In this document: one piece after another, positions 27,132 to 55,992 of the stretch
How the letters are laid out: each line of letters begins with the position of its first letter
How positions within the stretch are numbered: the stretch's first letter is position 1
Source: Nemertoderma westbladi
Taxonomy: Eukaryota > Animalia > Xenacoelomorpha
DNA: 64,000 bases
Direction of reading: 5' to 3'
NCBI GenBank assembly: GCA_032718475.1
Contig: JAUCBJ010008400.1
Span: 20,032-84,031, forward strand
Translations under genes and position numbers: made by a program
Notes under the pieces: model-generated
Databases searched by the model: none
Seen by the model: only the letters and a program-made list of their open reading frames with translations
What the model was told of the DNA's origin: nothing

Positions 27132-27446
27132 AGTAGTATATATTACATGGAACCTCGGCCAAGGTCACCCGTAGTCCATCATTACCATCCATTTCTGGTA
27201 CTGCAGCCAATCAGAAGCCACCATTTCAACCTTTTGCAGTGGTCGTTATTATTTCAACCAATCAGATGTCAGCATTTCATCCGTAACCATGGTAACTTCT
27301 CAAGTTCCCGCTTATTCCGCTAGAGGCGTTATTAGTCACCCAACGCTAGTACTGCATCCAATCACCAACCTTTATTTTACAGGTGTTCGGGTGTCTACAC
27401 TTAGCATCAGGTAACTTCTATTATTTTTCAAATCGCAATTTTTCAC
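27132..27446 (+). repeat. Polinton B left TIR (315 bp)
   Basis: Reverse complement of 44760-45074, one mismatch seen. Confidence 0.95.
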
Positions 27447-28034
27447 CAACCATTGCATATTCATCTTCACATAGCCTAACCTCACGATGCATGGCTAGCC
27501 CCCATCCCATCGCTACTCAATCCACAGCTGTTACCCACCCAACCACCCACCAACCAACCAATCAACGGCGATGTTTGCCTAACCCTACGGTTATTCACCT
27601 TTTCACCACGTTACCACCACTGCCACGTTACCACCACCACTGTATACTGTATATGGTGACGACGTGGCCACCAACTACTCGCATCGTGCATATATTATAT
27701 TATATCGATTGCCAACTCCACGACAGCCGTCACCAAACCAACAAACCAACCACTCAGTATGATACATGAGATTCCGTCACGTTCCAGCTACGCGTATGTA
27801 TTAGTGATTATTATTATTACGCAATAATTTTTTTGTTTATACAGTAGTTCCCTACCAGCTAATCAACCAATCAATAAACCGAATTTAGGCTATTTTTCAG
27901 TTGAAGACTTGTATTATTTTTGAAAATATCTTATATATAATCTCTTGCTTTAATCGCAATTAATCATTTGTAATGGTTTTAGTTTAAAAAGTTTTTACTT
28001 TGTTTGTTTGATTTACAATAAAATTAATTAAATA

Positions 28035-28478
28035 ATGTCTTCTGATTCCGATATGGTTATGCCAATAGTAAGGCATTCATTTTTCGCAGAAGATGGTGAA
28101 GCCTATATTGTTATTGATCATACAATTTACCGTCAAGGAGATGATAAATATAAAATCGATTTTTCTGAAAAAGCCAGGAAAGTTTTAAGCTCAATCGATA
28201 TTGATGCTTCTGATAATAGTATTCATCTTTTAGATTACAACCGGAAAGTTGAGCAAGAGGGAAAATTAATCAACATCTTACTATTATCCATGATAGAGGG
28301 GTTTATTGTTATTACACAATACAACGAAGCTGGTGAAAAGTTTGAAATACAGCTAAATCGGCATAGCCCCTACGAAATTATGTCTTTCTTTATTGTAATG
28401 ATTTCAAAAGAATCCTTTGTCGAACCTGAAGAATCAACAGATAATGTTGAATATGTTGATAATATCATTGATTCTTGA
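28035..28478 (+). CDS. Polinton B hypothetical protein (147 aa, acidic)
   Basis: ATG ORF preceded by TATATATAA at about 27932; no motif recognised. Confidence 0.6.
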   Translation: MSSDSDMVMPIVRHSFFAEDGEAYIVIDHTIYRQGDDKYKIDFSEKARKVLSSIDIDASDNSIHLLDYNRKVEQEGKLINILLLSMIEGFIVITQYNEAGEKFEIQLNRHSPYEIMSFFIVMISKESFVEPEESTDNVEYVDNIIDS

Positions 28479-28648
28479 CTTTTCCCTCTATATTATAAAT
28501 ATTTTATGATTATATATAAAATTTTGATGTTTTTAAATAATCGAAAATTGTAGCAGTATTTGTATATATACAGTATAACAGTTTTGTTTGTTGTTGTTGT
28601 TGTTGTGTATTGCAGTAATTATTTTCAATTTACTTTAAAATTTGGAAA

Positions 28649-29101
28649 ATGGATATTTTAAATGAAAAATGTCCAGTTTGCTATTCTAAGTTATTGCAAC
28701 AACATCGAGATTATTATAAATGTGAAAATAAACATGCAACTTGCGTACAATGTATTGTACAATATTCCGAAATGAATAATTATTGTTCTAAAATTTGTCC
28801 TATTTGTCGCGCACCCATATCTAAGTTTAATATAAAGTTGGCAAGTTATCAACCCTATTATTGGAAAGAGCTTCGCAATATAACTTATATTTCTGCGGAA
28901 AGTAATGATCCGGGAGATTTATTTACAATATTGGAGAATATTTTTTATAGAAATGTAGTACGATGCTGTTGCTACTATATTCCTTATTTTTTTAGCAGCG
29001 AACATAAAAAAATTATTAGCGCGAAATTTTCGGGAAGTGATTTCCAAACCGCCGATGTTACCTATCATTATTTCGCGTATAAAGATGCTCACCATGCTTA
29101 A
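28649..29101 (+). CDS. RING-finger (C3HC4-type) protein, putative E3 ligase
   Basis: CPVC...CENKHATCVQC...CPICR. Confidence 0.85.
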   Translation: MDILNEKCPVCYSKLLQQHRDYYKCENKHATCVQCIVQYSEMNNYCSKICPICRAPISKFNIKLASYQPYYWKELRNITYISAESNDPGDLFTILENIFYRNVVRCCCYYIPYFFSSEHKKIISAKFSGSDFQTADVTYHYFAYKDAHHA

Positions 29102-29311
29102 AATTACATCAGTCTATACTATAATTGGAAATAGCACCTTTTGTTGCAGCGAGCGTCACATACTGTAGCGGCGTCGTATGTTAATTAAATATACAGTACT
29201 CTAATATTGTAGTTGCAACAATTATTGTTATATACATAGTAATGGTGATGGTTTATTGATATTGATATTATATTATATTGTATTGTTGATATATCTTAAT
29301 AATAATAATAA

Positions 29312-29995
29312 ATGGCTGACTTTAATTCAGGTCCATATAATTTAAACTTTCAAATGGGAACGAGTATGATAATTTCTGGGCCATCTGGTTCTGGAAAGTC
29401 AACCTTTGTAAGCAATTTAATTAAACACAAGAATGGTTGTTTCAACGAAGCACCCTTGCGAGTATTGTATTGTTACGGGAGCAATCCCCCGACTATTCCC
29501 GGTATTACTCACCTTTACAAAGGTTTGCCCGAAAATATAGATAGTTTAGTGAATAGTCGAGATTTATTAATTATAGATGATTTGTTAACAGAAACTGAGT
29601 CCAGTACAGCATTAACTGTATTGTTTACTAAGGTAGCTCATCATTCCAATATATTTATTTGTTTTATAACGCAAAACATGTTTTACAGTGGGAAGCATAA
29701 CCGGACAAGATCAATTAATAGCCATACTTTAGTATTAATGAAAAATCCGAGAGACAGTTTATCGGTTTTAAATTTCGCGAAGCAGATGTTACCAGGGCAG
29801 ACCAAATTTTTAGTTGATTCCTATCAAGATGCGACAATTCAACCATTTTCACATTTCTTAATTGATTTACGACAGGAAACACCCGAACATTTAAGATTTA
29901 GATCTGATATATTTCGTAATCATAATTGTTACATTAAAAATTACACTGACTATAAACGTAGCGAAAATAATAATAATAATAATAATGATAAATAA
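29312..29995 (+). CDS. A32/FtsK-HerA-type genome packaging ATPase
   Basis: Walker A GPSGSGKS, Walker B LLIIDD, HHSNI..ITQN, LMKNPRD. Confidence 0.93.
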   Translation: MADFNSGPYNLNFQMGTSMIISGPSGSGKSTFVSNLIKHKNGCFNEAPLRVLYCYGSNPPTIPGITHLYKGLPENIDSLVNSRDLLIIDDLLTETESSTALTVLFTKVAHHSNIFICFITQNMFYSGKHNRTRSINSHTLVLMKNPRDSLSVLNFAKQMLPGQTKFLVDSYQDATIQPFSHFLIDLRQETPEHLRFRSDIFRNHNCYIKNYTDYKRSENNNNNNNDK

Positions 29996-30032
29996 TTAAT
30001 ATTTTGTAACAATTTTCAATAATGTTGCAACA

Positions 30033-30416
30033 ATGAATAGACTTGTACAGAAATATCGTAACGAACTGGAATTTCTACGCAGCGCTACCCCTCAACAAAG
30101 AACTTATTTTATTAACCATACCGCAAGTAACGAATTAATACGGCTCATTGTAAATACTGCATTAAATGTTCTAAAAGGTAATGTACAATTAACCCCTCAT
30201 TCATTTAGAAATATTCGCCGCTATAAGAAGGTATTGAAATCACTCAACCGTAAAACAAAAAATATATCAAGTTACAGAAAAAAGTTAAGCAATCAATCTG
30301 GAGGTATACTACAGTTTCTAATACCCTTACTCGGCATTGGTGCGAAACTCGCCGCGAGTGCCGGAGCCGCCGCCGCTGGAGCAGCTATCGCGAAAAAAAT
30401 TAACCGTGGACGGTAA
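30033..30416 (+). CDS. Small basic Polinton virion-module protein with QxGG motif and hydrophobic C-terminus
   Basis: NVLKGNV..., NQSGGILQFLIPLLG; positioned between ATPase and integrase. Confidence 0.75.
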   Translation: MNRLVQKYRNELEFLRSATPQQRTYFINHTASNELIRLIVNTALNVLKGNVQLTPHSFRNIRRYKKVLKSLNRKTKNISSYRKKLSNQSGGILQFLIPLLGIGAKLAASAGAAAAGAAIAKKINRGR

Positions 30417-30418
30417 TA

Positions 30419-30589
30419 ATGGTTAAAACAGGAGTAACATTTAGAAAATTATATTTAGTATCGAGTAAACCGTTAGCTACTGATTTAAAACCTCAAGATA
30501 TACCTAGAGTAAATACTACAAAAAGAAAACCCTTTAAAACATCAACTTCAAAGAAAATAATTAAAAAATTTCAGTTGTTCTTACGGTGA
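30419..30589 (+). CDS. Short basic ORF (56 aa)
   Basis: ATG 2 bp after previous stop; MVKTGVTFRKLYLVSS. Confidence 0.35.
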   Translation: MVKTGVTFRKLYLVSSKPLATDLKPQDIPRVNTTKRKPFKTSTSKKIIKKFQLFLR

Positions 30590-30640
30590 TGCCCTTTATA
30601 AGAGATTTGAATATACATATTACTTGCGGTTGTCGAAAAG

Positions 30641-31721
30641 ATGCCTCGCAAGATGAAACCGAAGCTTAGACAAAAAACTGTTAAGAATTTATTTAGATCC
30701 ATCATCCCCCGCGGGTTTTGCAAGTGTTGCAAAATTAGCAAAAGCTGCAAACATCAAACCAGCCCAAACCCAGAAATGGTTGAGCGGGCAAAAGACATAC
30801 ACCCTTCACGCTCCACGTAGACATCATTATCCAACATCTAAAATATTTACGGGAGGCATAAAAGATATATATAATATGATAGATTTGGTGGATATGCAGC
30901 AATATAAGTCGCAAAATAATAATTATAACTATATATTAACATGTATTGATGCCTTTAGCAGGCTTGCTTTTGGCTATGGTATGAAAACAAAAAAGGGTGT
31001 TGAAATTATTAGTATATTGCAAAAAATATTCCAGAAAGGAAAACCAAACAGAATCGCGACTGATCAAGGGTCTGAGTTTTTAAATAAATCTGTAAGAAAA
31101 TATTTAGATACGTTAGGTATACAGTATTACGTAATGTATTCTGTGAATAAGGCGGCTATTGTCGAGAGATTCAATAGAACATTAAAAACAAAGATGTTCA
31201 AAATTTTTACACAACGAGGAAATAATGTTTGGTTTAAAATTTTACCTAAGCTTATCTCGGCTTATAATAGGTCATATCATAGGACAATAAAAATGACGCC
31301 TATTGAAGTTAATAAATTTAATGAAACTGAATTAATGAATAGATTATATGGGAAATATAGACAGATTAATCATAAGAAAATAAAATTTAAAGTTGGAGAT
31401 ACAGTACAATTATCTATCGCTCGTGCTGCTTTTGCTAAAGGCTATCGAGAACAATGGACACGTGAATTATTTATTATTCATCGTGTCAGATTGGATAGAG
31501 TACCAGCGGTAATGTTCGATATTAAGGACAGCGCTGGAGCTATAATAAAGGACTCATTTTATTCTCATGAACTCCAAAAGGTCCACCCGAATAGTAATAT
31601 TTATCTAGCAATTGATAAAAATATTAGCAAACTTAAAGAACGTGTACGCAATGGGAAGAAAGAATATTTAGTCCGATTCATCGGATCCAAGAAACAGTCG
31701 TGGGTACAGCATATTCAATAA
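30641..31721 (+). CDS. Retroviral-like (RVE) integrase with degenerate C-terminal chromo-like tail; 5' end apparently frameshifted
   Basis: YLDPSSPAGF, YTLH, DDE triad IDLVD / TDQGSEF / VERFNRT, KEYLVRF..SWV; ATG at 30641 is one base out of frame. Confidence 0.92.
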
Positions 31722-31970
31722 GCTTAGGTTTATACTGTATATTAATTCATTTTGGTCGCATATGACTGTAATTAATCAATATTAACTCGAATGATATTAC
31801 TATATCTATAGTTCATCTGCTTTAAATAAAGCCAGTAAAATATTGATCCCTCGCATATACTGTAGAAGATGCACAATGAACGTGGTCACAGATGTCTATA
31901 ATTTAACATTATACTGTACTGTATGTACAATGGAGTCAAGTAGAGAGAGCGAGCTTAAATAATAATAATA

Positions 31971-32843
31971 ATGGCCACAGATACATATATCACTCTACTT
32001 TCAGATAGTTCATTAAACACTTACCCCAATAATAATCCTAGCGAGTTTACTGTTGATTTAGCCGAAGAATTATATATTGGTCCAAACGCTAAAATTGGGC
32101 TTGCCGAGCTTCAATATCAAGCAACATACAGTAATATTACGCTGCAAACTCAAATCTCACTCTCAATCGGGGTAGATGCAAAAGATGCCAAATTATATAG
32201 TTTATTTCCTGGTATGCATAACTCTATTCAAGTCATTATTGATGATATAAATAAACTGTTTAATTCTGAAGCGAAATATAGAGATTTCGAATTCATTTTT
32301 AATACAAATAATTCTAGAATTAAATTTAAATTTCCTAAAAAGTTGAAAAAAATACAATTAAGTCTACGTGGTGATTTAATACAAATTCTAGGCTTAAAAC
32401 CGTTATTGGATCGGAATCATCCGGATATTCCGAATTGGGATATATACAGTACCACTACAGTAGATGAATTAAGCAATATAGAACAGCCGATATTAATTTT
32501 AAATTATAGCGGGCCAAAAATTTCGGAAATTGGCATTTTAGATTTTCCAGCTCCCACGAATATAACACGTAATAAAGACACTATCTTTATATACACAGAT
32601 ATTATTAAGAGCTCATTTGTTGGCGACGCTTTAGCTCCGCTCTTAAGAACCTGCCCTTTAACGCAATTAAATCGAAAATATATTAATCACGAATACGAGA
32701 GCATTTGCTATTACCCGTTGTTGAATAAAAAACTAAAAACAATCTTAATTACTTTACGTGACGGACAAGGCGAATTAATTAACTTCAGCGGAGGTCGCAC
32801 TGTTATAACACTTAAGTTAATACGGGGTGGCAGTGATGGGTGA
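31971..32843 (+). CDS. Minor capsid (penton-like) protein 1
   Basis: YITLLSDSSLNTYPNN..SEFTV.L...IGLAEL; IYTDII..SFVGD..APLLR; YYPL. Confidence 0.85.
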   Translation: MATDTYITLLSDSSLNTYPNNNPSEFTVDLAEELYIGPNAKIGLAELQYQATYSNITLQTQISLSIGVDAKDAKLYSLFPGMHNSIQVIIDDINKLFNSEAKYRDFEFIFNTNNSRIKFKFPKKLKKIQLSLRGDLIQILGLKPLLDRNHPDIPNWDIYSTTTVDELSNIEQPILILNYSGPKISEIGILDFPAPTNITRNKDTIFIYTDIIKSSFVGDALAPLLRTCPLTQLNRKYINHEYESICYYPLLNKKLKTILITLRDGQGELINFSGGRTVITLKLIRGGSDG

Positions 32844-33681
32844 ATTCTACGTAAGACTACCAAGTAATTCCTGTCCAATTGATTTTCCCCGCAATAGCGC
32901 TAGTAATTATCAGATAAATTTCCATGGCGCCTTACCTATAAACCCAAACGAAAACTTGGTGGTAGGTATAAAAAGTATATTTTACTTAGCTACATTGCCG
33001 TCCATGTATAACAATGTAGAGAATGTTATTTTATTAAAAAAAGGAAAAAAAAATTTTGAGGATACACTTCCATCCGGTTTGTTCTATAGTATCAATGACA
33101 TTATAGATTATTTTAACACGGGGGCGTTGAAAGATAAATTACAAATAGTTGAAAATACTCAGCAAAATAGGTTGCAATTTATTTTAGGGAAAACTGTGCG
33201 AGAGTTATTTATAGGTCAACAATTAGCCTATTATTTTGGAATTACTGAAAATAATCTCGGCGCAAATTTAAATCCAAATTTTAAAATTATTTTGAAGACA
33301 AAAAATAACATAAAGGGTTATTTAATAAAGGTTATCGGAAATGGAGAAAAAGCTTACCAGATGGTATTTTTATGCCCTCAACCACCCAATTCTATTCCAG
33401 AACCTAAGTCGAACATGTACGTGACTACTAATATAATTGAAAATCAATATATTAATGACTTTGGTTTAGCTTTACTTCGTCGTGTTGCGATACCTGATGA
33501 CGTGAAATATGGTAGCGTAATAAATAAAGAATTTGTCAAGGATACAATTCATTATATCCCTGTAAAAAAATCATATAAGAGAACATACATTCATATTGAA
33601 ATAACAGACAAAGAGGTTAAAGATTTGAATTTTGAATACGGGACAACATCTATTACATTACACTTTAAACAAATAAATTAA
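32836..33681 (+). CDS. Minor capsid (penton-like) protein 2, tandem paralogue
   Basis: FYVRLPSNSC...FPRN.ASNY....VGIKSI; YVTTNII....ND...LLR; YIPV; ITLHFK; ATG at 32836 overlaps previous stop. Confidence 0.8.
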   Translation: MGEFYVRLPSNSCPIDFPRNSASNYQINFHGALPINPNENLVVGIKSIFYLATLPSMYNNVENVILLKKGKKNFEDTLPSGLFYSINDIIDYFNTGALKDKLQIVENTQQNRLQFILGKTVRELFIGQQLAYYFGITENNLGANLNPNFKIILKTKNNIKGYLIKVIGNGEKAYQMVFLCPQPPNSIPEPKSNMYVTTNIIENQYINDFGLALLRRVAIPDDVKYGSVINKEFVKDTIHYIPVKKSYKRTYIHIEITDKEVKDLNFEYGTTSITLHFKQIN

Positions 33682-33682
33682 A

Positions 33683-34230
33683 ATGGATTCTGATTTATTT
33701 CAAAGATACAGTAAACCTCAATATGGTGGTTCAGACTCTAATCTTGCTGTTTTTAAAGGTGGTAGAAGTACCAGAGGTTCGACGCAAGTTCCTGTTTTTC
33801 GAGGTGGTTCATATATTGACCCTTACGGTCAACAAATTGGCACATTTGGTCCAAACTTAAAACAACGTCGTTTTCAGCGTTATCGTAGAGTTATGCAGGC
33901 AAAAATCAACACGGAGAAGGTATATTTACAGACGCCTTATCGACATTGAAAAAATTTGGTAAGCCATTAGCTAAAAAAGTTTTACAGAAAGCTTTACCAT
34001 TTACCACAAAATTTATACCAAAAGGTAAGCGGGTCTTACATCAGCAGGCTAATACGGTTATTAATAAAGCATTAAATAAAATGAAACCGTCAACAAGGTC
34101 AGTTGTAGAAAAAGTTTATAGAGATTTAAAGCGACCCGCTAGACCAATGTCTATGAACATACATCATCGACGTAGTAAAAAGAGAAATATAAAGGGCAAA
34201 CTGAAACACTGCGAAAAAAGTATTTTTTAA
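33683..34230 (+). CDS. Basic core-protein-like ORF(s) with xxGG motifs (33683-33949 and 33946-34230; possibly one frameshifted gene)
   Basis: QYGG, FKGG, FRGG then K/R-rich amphipathic segment ending SIF, directly before the major capsid gene. Confidence 0.6.
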
Positions 34231-34232
34231 TA

Positions 34233-35492
34233 ATGTCAATTATTAAGGAATTAGATTTATTTTCTACACAGCCAATACAGACTGAATTTAAAGCAAAGCA
34301 TTATGAAACAATTTACCCCGTATCTAATCTCAGAAGTGAATCTAGGGAGGTCACGTTCCTTGTACCGAGATCCAATGAATTCTATACGAAACTGCAAGAC
34401 GCGTTATTAATTACAAAATGTACTGTACGATGGGATAGACGACTTGAAAACTCCCATATTTATATGCTGAATTACCCCGCTGAAACTATGTGGAGTGATA
34501 TTAAAATAGACCTTAATGAGAAGCAGGTTGAAAATAGCAATAACCATTATTTCTACAAGTCGTACTTATCCAATTTATTATTTACAACTTACGAGGATAA
34601 AAATGGGTTACTGGGTGCGGGTGGCTTTCATCAACCTTTATCTGAACACGGAAATGAAATTGATCCCGGCGCGCATCCTATTGACGAGGCCTTTAGTAAA
34701 CAAATGCAATTTGTAAGTGGATTGACAATTGATTTTGATACTGAAACTAAAATAATACAACCCGGGTATGATTTAAGAATGCATTTTAGAAAAGTATCAA
34801 ATTCGTTTATTTTTAAAATCACTCCACACGCAAACGCTGTGACAAATCTTCGGTTAGAATTAGATGAAATAAAGATCCTAATCCCTAGAATGGAGGTTAA
34901 TCCAGTAATAGAAAGCAGTCACCTAAAAGGTTTAGAGAGTTACGATATTGAATATCAATTCCAAAAAAAGGAGGTGACAACATTTACTATTCCCGCACAA
35001 ACCACAAATTACACCCAAACAAACATATTTGATGGTAAAAAACCCAAATTAGTTATTATCGGCTTCATAACAAATAACGCTTATTCGGGAGAATTAATTA
35101 GCAATCCCTTGAAATTTGAACATTTTAACCTTAGACGCGCGGAGCTGATTGTAGACGGTCTTCCAGTAGGGGGTGTAATATACGAGCCTAATTTTACAGA
35201 TGGAACATATATTTTTGAGTATACTCAATTAATGAAGAACATTAATACATATATTAACGGTTATGGAGGTAATAATATAGACCATGAAACCTACTTAGGT
35301 AATTGCCCCATCCTATCCTGGGACCTAACCGCCGACGGCTATGTTAGAGATCCGCAACCGTCGATATATACTAACGGTCAATTAAAATTAAGATTTGCCG
35401 AACCGTTGGTTGAAACCATAAATGTAATCGTTTTTAATATTTATGATCAATCATTAAGTTTAAATAGCAGGAAAGAAATACATATCGATTAA
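34233..35492 (+). CDS. Major capsid protein (double jelly-roll, hexon-like)
   Basis: ELDLFSTQPIQT..YETIYP, NPLKFEHFNL, WDLT.D, LKLRFAEPL..TINVIV; 419 aa between core ORF and protease. Confidence 0.88.
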   Translation: MSIIKELDLFSTQPIQTEFKAKHYETIYPVSNLRSESREVTFLVPRSNEFYTKLQDALLITKCTVRWDRRLENSHIYMLNYPAETMWSDIKIDLNEKQVENSNNHYFYKSYLSNLLFTTYEDKNGLLGAGGFHQPLSEHGNEIDPGAHPIDEAFSKQMQFVSGLTIDFDTETKIIQPGYDLRMHFRKVSNSFIFKITPHANAVTNLRLELDEIKILIPRMEVNPVIESSHLKGLESYDIEYQFQKKEVTTFTIPAQTTNYTQTNIFDGKKPKLVIIGFITNNAYSGELISNPLKFEHFNLRRAELIVDGLPVGGVIYEPNFTDGTYIFEYTQLMKNINTYINGYGGNNIDHETYLGNCPILSWDLTADGYVRDPQPSIYTNGQLKLRFAEPLVETINVIVFNIYDQSLSLNSRKEIHID

Positions 35493-35518
35493 GTATATTA
35501 TCTACAGAGGACCTTGAT

Positions 35519-35947
35519 ATGTTTCCAGTGGGTGGTCACTATTTGGGTGCGTTTCCAGCTAATAAATTACCTAAATTAGATAATAATAAGCGGCAGGATT
35601 ATGGGCTAATAGTAAATACCGATAAAGAGCATCTGCCCGGGATTCATTGGATCGCGATATATATACGAGATAATGAGGCTGAAGTATTTGACTCGTTTGG
35701 ACCAAAATATCCAAACAGATGCATCGAAAAATGGCTTGAGAAAAATTCCGCAAGGTGGCGTACTACTCGCAAACAATTTCAAGACCCAAGGAGGACCACA
35801 TGCGGTCTGTACTGTCTGTATTATTTGGTAAATCGTATTCACACAATCTATCCAATGAGAGCGTTTACAAATAATGTGGAAATAAATGAAATAATATTAT
35901 ATAAATGGCTTGTTAATTATTATAAAATAAACCAACATGCGTTGTAA
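35519..35947 (+). CDS. Adenain/Ulp1-like cysteine protease
   Basis: VNTD....PGIHWIAI, FDSFG, Q......CGLYC (H-D-Q-C catalytic order). Confidence 0.92.
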   Translation: MFPVGGHYLGAFPANKLPKLDNNKRQDYGLIVNTDKEHLPGIHWIAIYIRDNEAEVFDSFGPKYPNRCIEKWLEKNSARWRTTRKQFQDPRRTTCGLYCLYYLVNRIHTIYPMRAFTNNVEINEIILYKWLVNYYKINQHAL

Positions 35948-35982
35948 TTAATCATTTAACTTGCTTTTGTTTATCAGATAAA

Positions 35983-36581
35983 ATGGATAATATTATTTTT
36001 GTTGATTTTCAATATTATAAGATAGACAATAAAGAGTATCCGGTAGTATTTAAAGAATTTGCTATTTTCGATTCTAATTACACCAAAACTAATGTAAAGA
36101 CGTTTTTAATTAAAGGCCCGTCTAATATTAAGTTATCAGCTTTAGATGCAGCCCACGTAAACAATTTACGGGATATGACTTCTCACTTGCCCTGGGACTA
36201 CAGGGACATTTCTCAAGATGACTTTAAATAATAAATGAAGAGACATTTAAAATATAAAAAAAACATTCATGTATTTGGGTTGCTGAAGCGGGCAATATTA
36301 GTTTCCCAACTCGATGTTCTCGAGCCAAATTCGGTGGAGAAATTGGGAATATATAAGCAATATCACGAATATTTAACCCCCTGTCGGTTTCACGACCGAT
36401 TCACTACAGTAGAAAGTAAATGCGCGTTCCACTTAAACACAAAGGATAACTGTCTGCGGTATTGCTCAGCAAAACGCGAGGGGGGTATGAGGTGCTACAT
36501 TTTTTCATGAGAAAGCGTTTAACTGCGACTGATGATGATGATAAACAGAAAGAAATAACTGCGGTGGAAGATGTACTGTAG
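35983..36581 (+). pseudogene. Putative DEDD-exonuclease-like Polinton gene, disrupted (stops at 36229-36234, frameshift near 36490)
   Basis: IFVDFQ...FKEFAI, HLPWD, C-terminal CxxH..C cluster; tail collinear with 2-193. Confidence 0.55.
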
Positions 36582-36949
36582 GTTTACTCTAAGCATGTAA
36601 TGTGATGGGATAATATAATTTTATTTTGGTGATGATCTTGATGTTAATATAAAAATATAATAAAATATAATTTTTTTACAACAAGTTCTCTAAATAAGAG
36701 TCAATTGCGGTAGGTTAACCATGCACATTTAACAATATGACGTAGACGTAACATGTACAGTAAGTATTCTCGATATCATTCTAATATAGATATACTGGTA
36801 TTGCGAAACAACCTATACATCGCAAACTAATAACACATACAGTAGTTGACTAGTAATATTAGTCAGAAATGCAACATAAACTGTATAGGATGTAGTGTTA
36901 ACCTGTTGGTATCGGTACTGATAAATTCAATAATTTATTATAAGCCTAA

Positions 36950-37730
36950 CCACAACTGTCATCCACTTTATCAGTACCGGTAGTGTTTTACTCTTCCAAC
37001 ACTGTAGTCACAGTCTACTGGTATCAGTACAGCAGTAATCTGAAGCAATAGCATACTGCTGTCATGATCTGGATTACACGCAGGGGTCTCTCATATTGGG
37101 ATTAGATCACCTATCCAAACAATACAGTACTGCAGTACTGTCGTTGTTGTTGTAACAGCATAGTCAGATACAGCATACTGATTTCCTTTGATTAGCATTG
37201 TACCGCAGTACCAGTACTACAGTATTAATGTAACAGTACCCGCAGTAACAAACTAGGCTAATGTATACAATATCGTGAGCCAGTTACAATCAGATGTGTA
37301 CGCAGTCAGCCACACTGCGAGGGATGTGGTCAACCTCGCAGCTCCTATCCACAACTGTCATCCACTTTATCAGTACAGCAGTAATCTGATGCAATAGCAT
37401 TTGTTTTTTTTTTACCTATAAGGATACTGCTGTCTACCCGAACCTTGATTAGCATACTGCTGTCATAACCTAGAAGGCACGCGTGGCTCTCACATATAGG
37501 GATTAGATCCCCTACCCAAACAATACAGTACTGCAGTACTGTCTTTGTTGTAACAGTATAGTCAGATACAGCATGCTGATTTCCTTTAATTAGCATTGTA
37601 CCACAGTACCGCTTCTACAGTATTAATGTAACAGTACCCGCAGTAACAAACTAGGCTAATGTATACAATATCGTGAGCCAGTTACAATCGGATGTGTACG
37701 CAGTCAGCCACGCTGTTGGGAAGCGGTCCA
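36950..37730. repeat. ~400-bp diverged tandem duplication inside Polinton B
   Basis: CCACAACTGTCATCCACTTTATCAGTAC at 36950 and 37349; shared ends ...GATGTGTACGCAGTCAGCCAC. Confidence 0.85.
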
Positions 37731-37734
37731 CCTC

Positions 37735-37970
37735 GCAGCCGCCCAGCCACCCTCGCAGCTAGTCACGCAGTCAGCCTCGCGGCACGCAGTCAGCCTCGCG
37801 GCACGCAGTCAGCCTCGCGGCACGCAGTCAGCCTCGCGGCACGCAGTCAGCCTCGCAGTCAGCCTCGCGGCATGCAGTCAGCCTCGCAGCCAGCCTCGCG
37901 GCACGCAGTCAGCCTCGTGGTCAGTCATGCAGTCAGCCAGCCAGCCACGCAGCTAGGCACGCAGTCAACC
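37735..37970. repeat. GC-rich 19-bp minisatellite
   Basis: GCACGCAGTCAGCCTCGCG units. Confidence 0.9.
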
Positions 37971-38058
37971 CGTGAGAGTCATGCTTATTCAAACGAGGTT
38001 AGTTTTCCCTAACTACCGATTGATTGATTGAAAAATAATAATGTTTAATTTTCACCTT

Positions 38059-38607
38059 CTAATCACCAACACCTAAAGTCACAACACCAAACATTAATAA
38101 ATAATTAACAAGTTTACTAAATATTGGGTAATAAATGTGAAATTTGCTAGGTGAACACATTAAAGTACATTTACCGGTATGAAAGCAGCAAATGACTACG
38201 GTATTATTTATTCTTATTTTGCAATTATTAAAAATTTCAGGTTCATATATAACTTGAACATACACATGTTGTACATATACAACATAAAACCCTGTATTGT
38301 TTATCAATAACCTATAGACTACAGACTTAATACTAAAAATATAAGTACATAAATTAACAGATTTTAAAATCAAATTAATACTAGTTTTATCAAATATATG
38401 TTTTTTTACTTTTTGGAAATTATACTTACTACCTAATAATGTAATACGACCATTTTTAAATATTAATAATGTGGCACCAAATATCTTATATATAAACTGA
38501 TTTGGTTTGAGTATGTGTTTACCAGATAATTGATTTTTTAATTCTTTCAAATTAATCGCTGACACTTGCTGGCAACTTACATTCTTATTGACTATCTGAT
38601 AGTTCAT
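38059..38607 (-). CDS. TATA-binding-protein (TBP)-like protein, 182 aa, intact
   Basis: Two TBP repeats: IVN...INLKEL...ATLLIFKNGRITLLGSK and VN...YEPEIF...CCFHTGKCTL...YPIF (cf. TBP ALIFSSGKMVCTGAK, YEPELF, LIFVSGK, IYPIL). Confidence 0.85.
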   Translation of the reverse strand: MNYQIVNKNVSCQQVSAINLKELKNQLSGKHILKPNQFIYKIFGATLLIFKNGRITLLGSKYNFQKVKKHIFDKTSINLILKSVNLCTYIFSIKSVVYRLLINNTGFYVVYVQHVYVQVIYEPEIFNNCKIRINNTVVICCFHTGKCTLMCSPSKFHIYYPIFSKLVNYLLMFGVVTLGVGD

Positions 38608-41600
38608 TGTTTGGTTCCCGATAAATTGGTATATTGTTTTTTTTCATAGGTTTTTCGACCTTTGTTTGATAGTGACCCCAGGGAAGCGAATGATTTTTAT
38701 TAACCCAATAAAGTTTATCATCAAATGCGCTGAGAGCAAACTTATCTCATGCTATAGTATACACTTTGTGTAATTTACTCTGAAATTGATGTGTTTCTTT
38801 TGAAATTTCTTCGTTATCGTAATAATATGCCCTCAAATAATCTTTGTGACAAATATTTTTATCCACGACAGCTCTTGTTATTCCTTTCGCCCGTCATATG
38901 TTGGATTCATTGAATTCCAAAATTGAATATAATTTTGGTCTTAAAAATACTGCTTGTTTAATCTCTCGTGAGGCTAGTTCATCTTTACAGTAATAGAGCC
39001 TGGATTTATTTTTATCGCTGTAAAGAGGGTGATCCTTGGGGTAATTGGATGTATCTAGAATATTATTTTTAATTAAGGCTTTTAAAAAATTATTCTGCGA
39101 TGTATTATAGTAACAACCTATTAAAGAGTCCATGTCTGATGCTACAATTTCAATTCGACAGTTTAATTCTTTCTCAATAGGTAGCAATTTATCGTAATAC
39201 AGCTGATACATATCCAATTTAGCCAAGTCCAAGACAGTACAACCTACATAGACTGGTTTATCGAGAGTTACAGAGTCTTTCACTAATAAATGTCCCGATA
39301 AGGAATCGTTATAAATCATGAAATTTTCATGATTTATACGTTTGACTAATTGGTCACATTTTTCTTTACTATTTGCGATACGAAAGTTGCATCGATCCCG
39401 TATATTCTCTATAGTTTTACCAAATAAAGAATTGTTCAGCAATTTCGCGACAGCTGTTTCAATATAACTTTTTGCTAGTCGCCTTTGATTAATATTAAAA
39501 TCTATATAGGGTTTAAATACAAAGTCTTGATGGAAAGAATATAATTTATGGAGCTTAGTAACAATTAAACCTTGTTTTATATAAAATTTTAACAGTTTTA
39601 AATTTACATGATAGAATTCTTTATCGAATTGTGTCAACATAAGTTTCGGTGCACACATCTTATACTTGCTATTAGTGCCTCTTTGTTTACAAACATTGTT
39701 AAATTGTTCCCTCATATAAGGTGAAAGCATTGTCTTATTTATACTTAAATGTTCTGGAGCTAAGGGTAGTTCTAATGTACGATCGTGAATATCTTTGGGA
39801 TATTTCAAATCGCAAATTAAGAAAAACCCAATATCACCTTCAGTATCAAGATTTGTTAAATATTTTATCAGTTCTTATGGAGCAGCATTCTCTAAATATG
39901 TTACGTTGACTTGTTCAAAACCTGAAACAGGTAGCTTTTTACTTAAATTACCAGAATACAAGGAATTAAAATCTATATTGAAAATATGACACTCTTCCTT
40001 GCTTGGATCATAATTATCAGTATCTGGTATATTTGATTCTATGTAATGCTTTCGACAGAATGAAACCCCTCCTCTAATAGATGCTTCAAAATCTCTATAT
40101 GTTTGGTAATCTTTTATTAATGTTAACTTACATTTATTGTATTTCAGGGCGCAATCATAAGTGAAAGCTGCGATACTGCAATAATAAACTACTTCTAATT
40201 CGTAGTTTTGTCTACACACTCTCCTAAAGTTCTCAAATATATCAGCGAGGAGACAAACATCGAGTTTTAAGTATGCTAAAAGATAATCCTTGAGATTCAC
40301 ACAGTCAAACTGACTCCATGATGCGTTGGCAAAACTATATTCCTCGGGTGTACAGGTATTTTGTGTTAATTTACTATAAAATTTGTCTATTGGTGGTAAT
40401 TTCGAATCATTGAATTTATTTAAATCTGTCAGATACTCGTAGGGAAATATACCTTTTCGTTTAATTGTTGCGTTATTTAAATTTGGATAAAAATATTTCA
40501 TTTGCTGTTCAGTAATTGGTAGAACTGATGTTATATCCTCGCTGTCTATATCCTTTGTTGAACAATCAACTAAAGTACTTAGGGAAAAGGATAAAAATTG
40601 ATATGTGTCTAAGACACGTAGCTCGATCTTAGTTTTTTCATCTTTTACTGGTATATGCATACTTAGTGAAATATACCTTTCAGAATTTTTAGGGATCACC
40701 TTTATATCCCAATCGGAATATTTATTATTGCTAAAACCAACTTGTAAAAGAAAATGCAAATCGTAGAGATTGCAGTTGTGTGCAGCGAGTATATACATGT
40801 GTCGTTTCAACGATAAAGAGCGGTTACATGCGTTACAAGCGGCCGCTATATAGTTACCAGTAATATGTGAGTGATGTTTGTTTTTCTCAGACTTATCCTT
40901 AAATAAAACATTGCAATAAAAGCAAGTTTTAGCTTTCCAAAAACTTAACTTATCTACATCATTAAGTGTCATTCTCTCTCTTGTGTGGTCTTCCGACCAC
41001 TTATATAATTGGGTGATGTCATTATATACAGAGTCTAAAAAGTCTTGAATACAGTTGTTGTCGATTGTTTTTGTAAAGGTCTTCAAATAAAATTTTGGTG
41101 GATTGATTAATTCACTACTAGGAACAATTAAATAACTTACAGCGCAAGGAATATGATTCTGAATAAATTTACTGTTGCTGGCTGGCTCCAAAATAGATTC
41201 TATGTCAAAATATATTACAAACAATGCTGGTAATGTTCTGTCTAAATTTCTAAAGCTAATGTGAGTTCTTTTTTCAGATGGTAGCTTCTCAACTTGACTT
41301 TTTCCTCGATAACAAGCAAGATGGTGACGTTCTAGAACATCATTGGTGTAGAAAGGCGCCAAACACCGTTCACAATATTTCCTACCACGAGTATGAAGAG
41401 CTCTCGTATTCATCAAACGATTCAAGTTAGTTATGCAAACATAATGTGATTGTTTACTCGTATTCTTATTTTTTACAAGTAATATATTCAATAACTCTTT
41501 ATCTGGAGTGATTTTACTAAATGGTGCCTGTCTTAATATAGATACTCGATTGTTGTTGTAGAGTAATAAATTAATTATATATGCTGAATTCTGTTTTTCA

Positions 41601-42610
41601 AAAAGTGTAATTGCAAGCGGCCATTTTGTTGGATAATCTTTGTTCCCATTGTCAAAAATGAAATGACTCATATAATCTGTGTACTGTGAAGTACGATATT
41701 TGTGATCTTTCACTTTGCTACTAAATTTTGTAGCTATAATTGCCCATTTAAAACAATCATTATCAGCCGTTTGTATATTTATAACACATTTTTTAACTGA
41801 TAGAGCCTTAGGTAACTCCATATAACCGTGTCCCTTATATAGTAACGACCTACACTTGGATTCAGCTACTTTAATTTCAACCCTTAATAAAGATTTAACA
41901 CGCCACCCTGAACCACGAGTGTTAAACATGGCTATTTTTTGCATTAATTTTTCTAATACATACTCAAACCATGTGTCAAAACTTTCATGTGAATCTACGG
42001 TATTAACTGCACTACCTGAAGAACTAAAATAGAAAGCTTCTTCTTGATCACCCTCTGAAAAATGTGATCGATACATGAGTATATTCACACCTAGCCAGGG
42101 TCTAAGTACATTCATTTCGCTAAGTTTTCCTAATAATAAAGTTTGGATGTGAGGTAGAATTTTAATTAATGATGAATGAATATCAGGAAAATCTTCATCA
42201 TTTGGAAGATTGTAAACATAGATTTCTAAACGGTTATCGTGTGCGGCTCGTTCAATGTTAAAAATTGATGAACCTTGACCAGATTTCAGTCTTTTTCTAG
42301 ATACGATAGTATTGTTTTGGTTCCGTTGTGGTGGTGGTCTAACATGATAATAACGTTGGTGACAGTCGTGACGTAAGTAATTCTCATATAAATACTCTTT
42401 ATTACAAGTAGGGCAAGTTTTTTCATAGATGCAAAACTTCATTTCTTTACATCCTGTAGTTGTTTCATGTCGTTTACATATTTCTTCACGTGAACATTTC
42501 ACTCGACAATTAAAACAATTGTATTCTTCAAAATGAGATTTCACATGTGTTAAATAATTTCGTTTAGAAATTTGAAGAGGACAAAATGGACATTTCAATT
42601 GTTTATCCAT
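38585..42610 (-). pseudogene. polB: Protein-primed DNA polymerase B of Polinton B with N-terminal zinc fingers; three in-frame nonsense codons
   Basis: Collinear with pPolB A; stops at 39875, 38894 and about 38747 read through in frame; motif C altered to SDMDS. Confidence 0.93.
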
Positions 42611-43165
42611 CTCTTTATTATCCTAAAAACAATTTAAAATTAATATGAATATTGTTATATATATAATAAAAAAAAACTCATAAGCTACTCAACACAAATA
42701 AAATATAATATCTAAACTTTAATTAATTTAATATTTTCAGAATGAGCTCGATTGAATCAGTTGAGCTCTTTATATATATATATTTCAAGTTTCTACTTAT
42801 ACCAACCAATCATAAATAACAGTTACATTGGAAACTAATATCATAAATAAAGTTGCTTTTACAACTGAATTCTTTATAATAAAATCAAGTCTAAACCAAG
42901 ATGTGCATAATGCGTTTTTAATTTTCATTGATAAAGTAGGTTTTACATGCAAATGTTTTATTATGGTGGTGTAAACTCATGCATTTACATGCGAATGTTT
43001 TATACCTAATCCCGTGCTCACATTAAATATAAACTATCACGAATATTTACTCAATAAAGTCACCTTTACATGCAAATACTTTATAATAATCACGCTTTGT
43101 GATAAAAAGTTACCTTTACAAGTCAGTGTGAAACTGAAAAAGAAAAGTCTCTAGTTAATAATAAA

Positions 43166-44209
43166 TCAATCTGATACTGTTTTTATATGTTCCTTATTGT
43201 AATCTGCTACCTCTTCACTTGCTTTTGTAACTTTTATTTTCTTTGTAGGTATAGAATCATTGTTGGGAATGGAAGATGTTTGAGATGTAGATCTGCGCTT
43301 TCTATCACTCGAGGTCTCTTCGATGTATGTCTTTGGATTAAATGTGGATGAAACTACTTCTGGAAATGACTTATTAACCTTAAACTTCCAAGTTGGTTGA
43401 TATAGAATCGCGAAACCGTCTGCTATATCAGTTGATGAAACATTTAACATCATATCGTAGAGAAACTCTATATATGGTATGTCTTTATCGTAATGTAACT
43501 GTAAATATTTGCTTTCCTTGTCTGTAATAATTACTTTTTTTTCTTGTACATTTATTTTTACTTTAAGTCGGTCAGATAAAGCTTTATCGTCCGTATCTAG
43601 CTCTGAAAAGACACCTTCGTTACTAATTTCATAATTCCATTCATACCACAATGAATTTACTTCCGATGCTGTTAAGTTAAACCCATTATAATACCTAAGA
43701 CCAATAGCATCAGAATATCTAGCTGAAATCTCCCATAGTCCCATATAAGTCGTTCCTTTATATTTGCTTACAAAACCAACAAAAGATGGGTTGGTTAAAT
43801 TAACAACAGAACACTGATTTATTATTTCGAGTGGTGGTGATAACAATTCTAATATTTCTGTCTTACTCTGAAGCAATAATTTAATGAGTGATTTGTTTAG
43901 AATTTGACATTTGCCTTGCTTCTGAGTATATACGTTTTCAGTAATAACACAGGTGGAAATATTTAACTTTCCTCTTGTAAATTCTATATTAGGATAAATA
44001 TTACCTCTTGAAACTGGTGATTCCTTTTGTCGGTTGATTAATATTTCTAAGACGTCTAGAAGGTAGAGTGTATCCTGGTAAGAGAAGCACGTTGTTACAT
44101 TGCTATCGCTTGAGAGTAATATAAAGTACTTGCCATAAACAATACTACAGGTATATTTATTAAATGTAAATTTCCAAGTATTGTTTGAAGTTTTTTTAAA
44201 TAAATCCAT
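43166..44209 (-). CDS. Polinton protein with probable PC4-like ssDNA-binding domain (347 aa)
   Basis: GFVSKYKGTTYMGLWE...GFNLTASEVNSL resembles PC4 (V..FKG..YV.IR....KGI.L...W..L); basic NLS-like tail; homologue at 56069-57135. Confidence 0.55.
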   Translation of the reverse strand: MDLFKKTSNNTWKFTFNKYTCSIVYGKYFILLSSDSNVTTCFSYQDTLYLLDVLEILINRQKESPVSRGNIYPNIEFTRGKLNISTCVITENVYTQKQGKCQILNKSLIKLLLQSKTEILELLSPPLEIINQCSVVNLTNPSFVGFVSKYKGTTYMGLWEISARYSDAIGLRYYNGFNLTASEVNSLWYEWNYEISNEGVFSELDTDDKALSDRLKVKINVQEKKVIITDKESKYLQLHYDKDIPYIEFLYDMMLNVSSTDIADGFAILYQPTWKFKVNKSFPEVVSSTFNPKTYIEETSSDRKRRSTSQTSSIPNNDSIPTKKIKVTKASEEVADYNKEHIKTVSD

Positions 44210-44759
44210 AATTAGAATGAAAACTATTTTGAAAAATAAAAACTAAATAAATGATTATTAGAATGTAAAACTTCGGTTTATATGCTTGCTTTAATAAAAC
44301 AGAGTGACTTACAGTGAGGAATATAGTTGCTTCGTGTAACAGATGCAACGTGTACAGCTAAATTTATTACATTAGCGTGAGTTAGAGAGTGAAATAGCAG
44401 TAACGTGTAACAGATGCAACGTGATCAATGCTAGCCCTGTCATTCTAACTTATATTCAACTTAGTTGATCGATCAGTTACATCGATAAAAGAAATCGATT
44501 ATTATTAATAGTTGAATTAATGTATTCTACGCTATAGTAATTATGTTAAGGAACTAGAAGCTATTTATAAACATCTGCTACCAGTGATGAAGATGAAGAA
44601 TTCAATGACTATGGTATAACTCAGATATTTATCGCCTTTTTCTCTCGAGGTTGGATGGAAGAGTGATTGGTGAGTTGTGAGGAGTTATATCGGTCCCGGG
44701 TTCGAACCCTGTTGAATATTTTGTTATCTGAAAAATTGCAAAATTAAATTTAGTTACTA

Positions 44760-45074
44760 GTGAAAAATAGCGATTTGAAAAATAATAGAAGTTACCTGAT
44801 GCTAAGTGTAGACACCCGAACACCTGTAAAATAAAGGTTGGTGATTGGATGCAGTACTAGCGTTGGGTGACTAATAACGCCTCTAGCGGAATAAGCGGGA
44901 ACTTGAGAAGTTACCATGGTTACGGATGAAATGCTGACATCTGATTGGTTGAAATAATAACGACCACTGCAAAAGGTTGAAATGGTGGCTTCTGATTGGC
45001 TGCAGTACCAGAAATGGATGGTAATGATGGACTACGGGTGACCTTGGCCGAGGTTCCATGTAATATATACTACT
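44760..45074 (-). repeat. Polinton B right TIR (315 bp)
   Basis: Reverse complement of 27132-27446, ends ACTACT. Confidence 0.95.
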
Positions 45075-46044: not shown

Positions 46045-46744
46045 TTATAGCCAAGGCGTATCGTACGTCCTTAATTATTTAGTGCGTAGTGCGCACGTAA
46101 TACATGTGCGCATTTGTTATTAGCTAATACGTGCTATCTAACATGTCAACTAGCACATGATCAGGTGTTAGTATTACCTGTGAACGCAATAATAACAAAT
46201 AAGCACATACAATACAGCTAACACACTTGCGCACATGTTGGAAATTTTTGAATTTAATTTCTAAAGTGCTCCATAAGATTTTGATATTTTGGTATCAATT
46301 GCTTCTAAAATAAGTACGGGACTGTAGTTAGAATCATGTATCAATACAAATTGAACAAAATGTAGCCAAATGCAGAACTATAAGAACAAAATTTAGATTC
46401 AGAAGCGGAACTCTAAGTACAAAATATAGCCATGGGTGGTACTCGACAGTAAGAACAAAGTCTAGCTACAGGGTTACAGCTACGTTAAAGTAAAGTTCAC
46501 TTACAGTACGTCATGACGAATAATTAAAGACCTGTTTTTTCTACAGTACATTTTGAGCAACTCTATCAGCAACTTGGTGAGCTGAGCATGCCAGGTTGCC
46601 GATCAAGTTGCTCTATGTAAGCGCGAAGTTTGTTGCTGTAAAAGATGCCTCATATAACGGAGACTAAAAGTTAATGGTTACTCAAATTAAGTTGCTTGTT
46701 GCTGACCAAGTTATCCAAAACGTCCGGAACCCCATAGCAACTTG

Positions 46745-48150
46745 GACACAAACATTAAATGAAGGACAGATATTTATCAGCGCCACAAACATTAATGTGG
46801 GACAAACATTAATCAGGGGGACAAATATTAATCAGGTGGACAAACATTAATGAGGGACAAAAACATTAATGAGGGACACAAACATTAATGAGGGACACAA
46901 ACATTAACGAGGGACACAAACATTAATGAGGGACACAAACATTAATGAGGGACACAAACATTAATGAGGGACACAAACATTAAAGAGGTACACAAACATT
47001 AATGAGGGACACAAACATTAATGAGGGACTCAAACATTAATGAGGGACACAAACATTAATGAGGTACACAAACATTAACGAGGGACACAAACATTAATGA
47101 GGGACACAAACATTAATGAGGGACACAAACATTAACGAGGGACACAAACATTAATGAGGGACACAAACATTAATGAGGGACACAAACATTAATGAGGGAC
47201 ACAAACATTAATGAGGGACACAAACATTAAAGAGGTACACAACATTAAAGAGGAACACAAACATTAATGAGGGACTCAAACATTAATGAGGGACACAAAA
47301 ATTAATGAGGTACACAAACATTAATGAGGGACACAAACATTAATGAGGTACACAAACATTAAAGAGGTACACAAACATCAATGAGGGACACAAACATTAA
47401 TGAGGGACTCAGACATTAATGAGGGACACAAACATCAATGAGGGACACAAACATTAATGAGGGACACAAACATTAAAGAGGTACACAAACATTAATGTGG
47501 GACACAAACATTAATGAGGGACTCAAACATTAATGAGGGACACAAACATTAATGAGGTACACAAACATTAATGAGGGACACAAACATTAATGAGGGACAC
47601 AAACATTAATGAGGGACACAAAACATTAATGAGGTACACAAACATTAAAGAGGTACACAAACATTAATGAGGGACACAAACATTAATGAGGGACTCAGAC
47701 ATTAATGAGGGACACAAACATTAATGAGGGACACAAACATTAATGAGGGACACAAACATTAATGAGGGACACAAACATTAACGAGGGACACAAACATTAA
47801 TGAGGGACACAAACATTAATGAGGGACACAAACATTAATGAGGGACACAAACATTAATGAGGGACACAAACATTAAAGAGGTACACAAACATTAATGAGG
47901 GACACAAACATTAATGAGGGACTCAAACATTAATGAGGGACACAAAAATTAATGAGGTACACAAACATTAATGAGATACACAACATTAATGAGGGACACA
48001 AACATTAATGAGGTACACAAACATTAATGAGGGACACAAACATTAATGAGGTACACAAACATTAATGAGGGACAAAAACATTAATGAGGGACACAAACAT
48101 TAAACGAGGGACAGATATCAATCAAGGGCACAAACATTAATCATGGGCAC
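46745..48150 (+). repeat. 19-bp satellite array (~70 units)
   Basis: ATTAATGAGGGACACAAAC units. Confidence 0.95.
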
Positions 48151-48728
48151 CATCATTCCATTCCATACATGTTACCACCCATACACATACAATATATTAC
48201 ATTATTACAATTCTCATTACTGGCAAGCAATACAATAACAACAATAAATAATAACATATTAATGTGACCAAACCAATGTTATTTAAATAAATTAAACCCA
48301 TGTTATTACCAATTGAGGGGAAAGATCAGGTTACAGAGATGGTTTTTCTAACCAAAACAATAAACGATGTTGTTACTAATAAGGGAAGGAGTAAAAAAAT
48401 GATGAACATGAAGGGGAGACAGGAATGGGGGGGGGGGGGTAATATGAATGGTGGGGGTAGGAGGTAAATTGAAAATATGGGGGTATAACAGGCGGGGGGG
48501 GGGGGGGGGGGGGTAGCAGAAAACAGGCAGCTCAACAACGTAACCAAACGTCGCTTTCAATTAATTTCCATCTAATTAGTTAGATGGAATGTATACAAAG
48601 CGGCGCTACTTTGATCGAAGCTCACGTTCCCATGGTAGTATTTTTTCAGTTAATCACTTAATATCTGATCGTCTGATGGCAAGCATCACCATCGCTCATA
48701 TTAATATCCATTGGCAAGCATTCACCCC

Positions 48729-49307
48729 TATTAATGTTTGTGCCCCTGATTAATGTGTGTCCCTCATTAATGTTTGTGTCATACATTAATGTTTGTGTCC
48801 CTCAATAATGTTTGTGTCCCTTGTTAATGTTTGTGCCCCTTATTAATGTGTATCCCTCATTAATATGTGTCCCTCATTAATGTTTGTGTCCCTCGTTAAT
48901 GTTTGTGTCCATCATTAATGTGTGCCCCTCATTAATGTTTGTGACCCTGATTAATGTAAGTCCCTCATTAATGTGTGTACCTCATTAATGTTTGTGTCCC
49001 TCGTTAATGTTTGTGCCCCATATTAATGTGTGTCCCTCATTAATATGTGTCCCTCATTAATATGTGTCCCTCATTAATGTTTGTGTCCCTTGTTAATGTT
49101 TGTGTCCATCATTAATGTGTGCCCTCATTAATGTTTGTGACCCTGATTAATATCTGTGTCCCTTATTAATGTATGTGCCCTTGATTAATATGTGTCCCTA
49201 ATTAATGTTTTTGTCCCTTATTAATGTTTATACCACTTAATGTGTGTCCCTGATTAATGTTTGTGTCCCAGATTAATGTTTGTGTTCCCTCAATAATGTT
49301 TGTGTCA
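48729..49307 (-). repeat. Inverted, more diverged copy of the 19-bp satellite
   Basis: GTTTGTGTCCCTCATTAAT units. Confidence 0.92.
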
Positions 49308-55742: not shown

Positions 55743-55992
55743 GTTCTCACTCTGAAATTGTTGTTATTTCCTTAATAATTTCTACATTATCTTACTCGTT
55801 GTATATTCGTTGGTCGGAAAACAACACCTCATAAAATGATACTGATTCCAGCATTGGGTATCGATCAAAAAAACGAAAATCTGAGCTATGTGTCTTGCTC
55901 AGTTTTTGTTTTTTGATCGATACCTAATGTCGAACTCAGCATCATTTTTCTTAGGTGTCGTTTTCCGACCATCACAATTTTAGAGTGAGAAC
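55743..55992. repeat. Long imperfect hairpin / MITE-like palindrome
   Basis: TGGTCGGAAAAC...GATCAAAAAA...CTGAGC-loop-GCTCAG...TTTTTTGATC...GTTTTCCGACCA plus outer GTTCTCACTC/GAGTGAGAAC. Confidence 0.75.

Follow-up and report, generated by a model that had tools for sequence, protein, structure and literature searches.

A divergent TATA-binding protein homologue carried by a Polinton of Nemertoderma westbladi

Two Polintons in the window

The window, by which we mean the whole stretch of 64,000 nucleotides analysed here, contains two Polintons, A and B. Element B spans positions 27132–45074 (~18 kb) and appears to be a complete Polinton, bounded by a left TIR at 27132–27446 (plus strand, 315 nt) and a right TIR at 44760–45074 (minus strand) that is 99.7% identical to the left one, with a 6-bp target duplication outside the TIRs. 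The ATPase, the integrase, two penton-like genes, the capsid gene and the protease lie on the plus strand, and a 347-aa ORF, pPolB and a TATA-binding protein (TBP)-like gene on the minus strand.

The A32-like packaging ATPase of B (29312–29995, plus) matches Pfam Pox_A32 with an E-value of 8.5e-4, which is below the cut-off, and is 32–41% identical to the ATPases of most of the related metagenome loci. The retroviral-type integrase (30641–31721, plus) is frameshifted near its start and matches Pfam rve (E 1.8e-11), and the adenain-like maturation protease (35519–35947, plus) matches Peptidase_C5 (E 1.3e-5); both scores are above cut-off. Between these two genes are a pair of putative minor capsid (penton) genes (31971–33681, plus), a label inferred from position, and the gene of a putative major capsid protein (34233–35492, plus), labelled from its size and position. 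Pfam and NCBIfam searches returned no family match for the penton-like genes or for the putative major capsid protein; by tblastn, the former have weak matches to relatives and the latter matches five related loci with E-values of 1e-15 to 1e-31.

The pPolB frame (38585–42610, minus) comprises 1341 codons with three internal stops. It has no PolB match in Pfam, and tblastn connects it at E<1e-50 to pPolB-sized ORFs of six metagenome loci. Besides size, position and homology to relatives, the pPolB and capsid labels in B draw in part on the general anatomy of Polintons. Since the pPolB frame contains three stops and the integrase is frameshifted, element B is inactive. Upstream of pPolB lies a conserved ORF of 347 aa (43166–44209, minus), whose homologue at 56069–57135 (plus) is 50% and 37% identical in two parts. 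This ORF has no family, Atlas or related-locus match; a PC4-like identity, suggested by a resemblance, found no support in Pfam, Atlas and NCBIfam searches and was rejected.

Ahead of the ATPase of B, a 150-aa RING-finger-like ORF (28649–29101, plus) gives weak Pfam matches and is possibly a ubiquitin ligase carried as cargo. Orphan cargo ORFs are present at 1242–1595 (minus, 117 aa) and 28035–28478 (plus, 147 aa); the 117-aa ORF is situated in A between the TBP gene and the structural block, a place that is taken in B by tandem repeats. The non-coding gap between the convergent gene blocks of B holds a 290-nt duplication (89% alike) together with a 19-nt tandem array (37049–37739 and 37725–37939). 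At 46652–49307, units of 19 nt and of 17/19 nt form long arrays, some of them mutually inverted.

Element A represents half of another Polinton, the remainder of which is found in inverted orientation at about 55146–58101. The C-terminal part of its pPolB (2893–6186, minus) is an open frame that is cut at a Pao LTR, the N-terminal part (57332–58101, plus) belongs to the inverted half, and an identical 5-bp word is present on each side of the break. Pao/BEL LTR copies are located at 6187–6461, 58102–58376 and 63878–64000, the first being inverted and 100% identical to the second over 275 nt. A Pao insertion cut Polinton A within pPolB, and a rearrangement of ~52 kb parted the halves. The Pao element and further retrotransposon pieces in the window make an animal host probable.

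Identity and conservation of the TBP-like gene

The TBP-like ORF of B (38059–38607, minus) is an open frame of 182 aa, and its start overlaps the stop of pPolB by 23 nt. The overlap, which had been noticed in a preliminary description of this DNA, has the same length in A. The orthologue in A (2364–2915, minus, with a further in-frame ATG at 2918) contains one in-frame stop, at codon 90, in line with the single nonsense codon reported earlier.

The claim that the 182-aa ORF comprises both TBP repeats is borne out by Pfam, which detects PF00352 on the minus strand in two stretches with an E-value of 5.8e-10 and 39.3 bits, above the curated cut-off of 22.9 bits. The two halves of the A copy each match the Pfam TBP family as well, with scores under the cut-off. 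Archaeal TBP models of NCBIfam match the ORF weakly (E 1.7e-4, far under their cut-offs), and a haloarchaeal TBP shows 25% identity in a pairwise comparison that covers both repeats (E 1e-4). In the ESM Atlas all neighbours of the protein are TBP clusters (0.95), the three displayed being 50–59% viral, at a recognition value of 2040, which is under 2300. Direct homologues were found neither among 5.8 billion proteins or 1.84 billion representatives nor in viral contigs, plasmids, phages or our initial metagenome scan. A phmmer search of the PDB with the 182-aa protein gave no match, and a profile built from both copies matched Sulfolobus TBP with an E-value of 0.067. At the level of sequence, these results confirm the ORF as a two-repeat TBP homologue carried by a Polinton, and its product appears to be a conserved but heavily altered relative of the cellular TATA-binding protein.

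We compared the protein with yeast TBP, using the numbering obtained from an alignment to chain 1rm1_A. Residues F38, F50, F126 and F142 correspond to yeast F99, F116, F190 and F207 in the alignments, and all four intercalating Phe are kept, as had been proposed for these two Phe pairs; the F38 column is less certain due to a loop deletion. The first central Asn is kept as well, N7 of the IVN motif being equivalent to yeast N69. The proposal of a second Asn, in the SVN motif, did not hold, since this residue (N85) never aligns with yeast N159. None of four alignments of the 182-aa protein places an Asn at that position: the column falls in three registers (S95, S83 or T88), of which S83 stems from a profile containing the query itself, and in one alignment the register differs between copies A and B.

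Glu122 and Glu124, which are present in both copies, align with yeast E186 and E188, the YEPE pair. By this mapping, which is our own, they would represent the Glu pair in contact with TFIIB. Residues T56, L58, N127 and C140 differ from the DNA-face residues of both cellular TBPs and the Polinton family described below; N127 occupies the position of P191, and no clear Gly follows the final strand. The protein shares the family's Asn at the position of yeast V71 and carries T56, L58 and C140 in place of the family residues.

A single-sequence structure model of the 182-aa protein has a pLDDT of 37.5. When the protein is aligned with nine archaeal TBPs, the pLDDT rises to 67, with the caveat that such an alignment presupposes the TBP fold and is thus circular; residues 103–127 of this model, including the Glu pair, remain below 50. 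Given the same circular input, the PDB matches of the model at E<1e-4 are TBPs only (TM about 0.5), and its BFVD matches are viral TBPs or unnamed proteins.

The two TBP copies are 75% identical over 172 codons. At a dS of 1.06, their dN/dS is 0.138 (bootstrap 0.08–0.23) rather than near 1, and the repeats taken singly give 0.12 and 0.14, compared with 1.26 and 1.59 for shifted frames as a control. For pPolB of the same elements, dN/dS is 0.15 and 0.21 in the two main stretches and 0.37 in the N-terminal part. The TBP-like gene is under purifying selection. A further TBP copy comes from run X1, in which coverage is fairly even along the element and which is possibly a DNA run. Of the 22 differences listed for this copy, 16 are at third codon positions. 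On a second contig of the run, which spans pPolB and TBP across a diverged junction, this is the case for 1 of 5 differences, and for both contigs pooled the count is 17 of 27 (p 0.0015).

Relatives in metagenomes and their promoter boxes

To find relatives, metagenomes were scanned with a pattern of YEPE-x-F followed after 15 residues by F-x-[ST]-G-K, whose Phe spacing is one residue under that of aligned archaeal and yeast TBPs. The scan yielded 81 loci. One or more Polinton core genes are present at 32 of these (tblastn, E 1e-5), many of the others being short contigs, and this does not support the idea that the gene is peculiar to the lineage in the window. With a 24-sequence profile, 156 proteins were retrieved at E 1e-10, gene context not included, and all eight relatives that we checked pass the Pfam TBP cut-off.

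Our tree has 76 rows, includes no eukaryotic TBP and leaves out 15 of the 81 metagenome proteins, which have lengths outside 140–230 aa. Fifty-eight of the 66 metagenome proteins within this range fall into one group, 29 of them Polinton-linked; the remaining eight group with archaea, and none of them is Polinton-linked. The window pair branches between the archaeal and the Polinton groups, on a branch of 2.33 changes per column. A 58-member Polinton profile scores the window protein with 43.8 bits and a 16-member archaeal profile with 26.1 bits, while shuffles reach at most 7.8.

The window protein is a divergent member of a widespread class of Polinton TBPs that is barely mentioned in print; a published description of this mini-TBP family was not found in the literature searched. 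The protein and the family (L033–L113, P0003–P0122) have in common the N-x-N first strand, the KPxQ loop and the 15-residue Phe spacing. In contrast to the family, the window protein is longer (182 aa versus a median of 167 aa), does not have the DNA-face residues Arg, Met, Pro and Asn and is placed by the tree on a long branch beyond the family clade, its gene overlaps pPolB, and its element lacks TATAAACA.

Among the relatives, the TBP gene is found directly before the ATPase (L040, L073, L061, L056 and L084), after the protease (L108, L049, L086 and L106) or two genes after pPolB (L062 and L090). Since the gene occupies these other positions, the overlap with pPolB is lineage-specific, and the coupling to pPolB that had been suggested does not extend to the class as a whole.

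Mapping 117 family proteins onto yeast positions reveals Asn at V71 in 103 of them, Arg at V122 in all 117, Met at T124 in 116, Ser at N159 in 107 and Asn at L205 in 112. Such near-invariant substitutions on the DNA face suggest a selected specificity. Each Glu of the pair is present in 116 of the 117 proteins, although it should be noted that the search pattern favours that motif. The position of F38 is mostly occupied by Leu in the family, so that the Phe of the window protein is cellular-like.

Several ORFs in or beside related Polintons (L105:12064–12561, L040:6806–7666, L040:8750–9151 and L058:10727–11170) include a ubiquitin-conjugating enzyme, a KilA-N protein and phospholipase A2-like genes adjoining the TBP gene. 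L046:100–1302 encodes a TBP-like protein of 401 aa with a long N-terminal extension, on a contig of 61% GC without Polinton genes.

Promoter boxes of the relatives were counted in 23 dereplicated Polinton loci of 29, which are mutually related. The word TATAAA[CT], chosen on the same loci in which it was counted, is found at −28 to −110 of 18 of 44 core genes in sense orientation and of 0 of 44 in antisense (Fisher p 8.5e-7, for kin loci); it is absent before 26 of the 44. It precedes only 2 of 21 TBP genes (p 0.011 versus core genes). In these relatives, the strand of the TBP gene carries 67 occurrences of TATAAACA and the opposite strand 9. Many of the TATAAA[CT] sites are situated 32–44 nt before the ATG, as would be expected if the leader that follows a TATA box were very short. 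Among viral contigs, no relative of the capsid, of pPolB, of the ATPase or of an archaeal TBP could be confirmed, and so no TBP-less Polinton was found for comparison.

In element B, TATAAACA is present before 0 of 12 plus-strand genes, and no k-mer shared by the 200 nt upstream of 10 B genes rises above shuffles. TATAA precedes 9 of 12 genes, where shuffles average 5.1 (p 0.01 without correction, for one of five patterns), and 6 of 12 in antisense, at distances scattered over 32–109 nt. Candidate TATA-like boxes, weak and chosen post hoc, are located at 30597–30604 (plus), 44 nt before the integrase start, and at 32804–32811 (plus), 32 nt before the second penton-like gene; a candidate TATA box, equally weak and post hoc, lies at 34188–34195 (plus), 45 nt upstream of the gene for the putative major capsid protein. 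These positions (−32, −44 and −45) match the spacing in the relatives, and neither the ATPase nor the protease of B is preceded by such a box. In B, AATATAGA occurs 7 times versus 1.3 expected, but mostly inside coding sequence and 245–617 nt from the next start, and was rejected as a promoter. TATAA[CG]A precedes 4 of 12 genes (p 0.001), but it was picked after viewing the sites and has 3 antisense occurrences, and it was left out of account.

Proposed role and known systems

We lean, if not strongly, towards a role of the element's TBP as a one-protein viral promoter factor that would borrow host TFIIB and Pol II. The earlier suggestion that this lineage has a promoter-recognition factor of its own thus survives as the likeliest role, with support that comes mainly from the relatives and not from the promoters of B. 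We infer the following sequence of events. TBP would be translated from the replication-strand transcript, where the 23-nt overlap would permit translation to re-initiate once pPolB has ended. The protein would use its four Phe to bind TATA-like boxes in front of the genes for capsid, packaging and integrase, and the kept Glu pair would recruit host TFIIB and with it host RNA polymerase II, switching the Polinton from early to late expression. In the window's lineage, the box that is read may be looser than the TATAAACA of the relatives, or another one.

Host TFIIB is proposed because TFIIB was detected neither in the scanned ORFs of B nor in 25 accessory ORFs of seven related loci, in a family search that could miss a very divergent TFIIB. 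The window lineage lacks both the DNA-face residues and the box of the family, and this single case would fit a co-variation of protein and site. More tentatively, and with clearly less confidence than we place in the promoter factor itself, Polintons may possess the smallest viral transcription switch seen: a bare TBP core acting on a private TATA variant with host TFIIB and Pol II, in which the TBP surface and the box change together, the window harbouring a specificity-switched TBP tied to pPolB.

Host TBP may also read boxes of the TATAAA[CT] type. The C(-25) variant of the adenovirus box is presumably TATAAAC. According to its title, PDB entry 1qn3 contains wild-type TBP bound to this C(-25) variant, and thus host TBP could read the boxes of the relatives.

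The decoy of host TBP raised in the preliminary description would be a protein that unproductively binds host TFIIB or host TATA boxes and thereby lowers transcription of the host, the viral boxes being read by host TBP. The combination of a kept Glu pair with a drifted DNA face and the lack of a clear private box in B are what one would expect of it, and viral TBPs are described as lacking the N-lobe signature for host regulators in the accessible text of Ravarani et al. 2020 (PMC7221094). Nevertheless, all four Phe are kept, the single box of the relatives is strand-specific, has promoter-like spacing and is mostly missing from the TBP gene itself, and the substitutions on the family's DNA face are near-invariant (Arg 117/117, Met 116/117 and Asn 112/117). 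We therefore consider the decoy unlikely, and less likely than a promoter factor.

The protein could instead supplement the dosage of host TBP, with ordinary TATA preference and no private code, so that the element could be transcribed in cells, perhaps germ cells, that are short of host TBP or in which it is replaced or bound by regulators. The candidate boxes of B do resemble ordinary loose TATA words, a cellular TBP binds the C(-25) box variant, and at F38 the protein agrees with cellular TBPs and not with the Leu of most family members. An identity of only ~20–25% to archaeal TBP and the changes in the centre of the DNA face fit poorly with unchanged specificity, however, and we regard this explanation as rather unlikely too.

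Still less probable is a helper of replication or packaging without a role in transcription, in which the TBP fold would assist pPolB by bending AT-rich DNA, either at the termini or at the origin. TBP and pPolB share one strand in B, and the 23-nt overlap in two copies and the adjacency in a third would be in keeping with such a function; but the position of the gene varies in the relatives, where it is mostly inside the structural block, the boxes follow gene starts and not termini, and the Glu pair is present in 116 of 117 homologues, though the searches favour it. Finally, a captured fragment of host TBP in neutral decay, for which the in-frame stop in copy A and the very long branch (2.33 changes per column) might be quoted, is highly improbable, as it is largely refuted by a dN/dS of 0.14 at a dS of about 1 and is at odds with the third-position bias in the further copy and with the widespread Polinton family.

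The timing of capsid-gene expression in Polintons bears on whether Polintons are real viruses. With a selected TBP gene and a matching box in relatives, the role as a promoter factor can be tested using one small protein and short reporters. The Polinton TBP family also provides natural TBP variants with altered DNA-contact residues, which are informative on how TATA specificity is encoded. The value of the window lies in its very divergent lineage combined with the metagenomic survey, the promoter evidence being weak for the window alone.

A TBP in a Polinton-like genome has been recorded before, for MELD viruses whose PolB is adintovirus-like: Starrett et al. 2021 (PMC8502044; preprint 10.1101/697771) list a gene "similar to TATA binding proteins" in the legend of Fig. 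5. In the accessible text of that paper the gene is named only in this legend, which belongs to the section about non-animal datasets, without analysis, residues or promoters. The adintovirus maps of Fig. S2, as far as their text is readable, carry no TBP label, slides and figures being outside the text search. Within the literature searched, as far as its text is accessible, this label is the only Polinton TBP in print. TBPs are mentioned in mirusvirus-like elements (PMC10675990, accessible text), and in PMC12220804 the word TBP occurs only within the reference list.

Cellular TBPs (PF00352; yeast 1rm1/1ytb, human 1cdw, archaeal 1mp9 and 1ais) and the window protein have in common the two repeats, the four Phe, the first Asn and the YEPE stirrup. 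The window protein is 19–25% identical to archaeal TBPs, has deletions in both stirrup-side loops, lacks the second Asn and the N-terminal extension, and is changed at several central DNA-face residues.

The TBPs of large dsDNA viruses resemble the window protein in being viral and divergent and in keeping the L5.1 Phe, which is kept in 90% of viral sequences in the accessible text of Ravarani et al. (PMC7221094), and viral TBPs are the nearest Atlas and BFVD matches of the window protein. The same paper describes two C-lobe Glu that bind TFIIB; most TBP-bearing viruses are said there to vary at these Glu, often losing the pair, and to encode their own TFIIB. In contrast, element B, with its ~18 kb, keeps both Glu, and TFIIB was not detected.

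A functional precedent for a viral TBP mimic is KSHV ORF24, which, according to the text accessible in PMC12529657, directs host Pol II to the late promoters of the virus by means of TBP-like Phe. Compared with ORF24, the window protein is a bare TBP core and would use host TFIIB. The late-promoter systems of herpesviruses are marked by a shared non-canonical box before late genes; a shared box is seen before core genes of the relatives (18/44 versus 0/44 antisense) and is weak or absent in B. If the proposal is correct, the Polinton switch would require neither a viral TFIIB, as in giant viruses, nor a multi-protein complex, as in herpesviruses.
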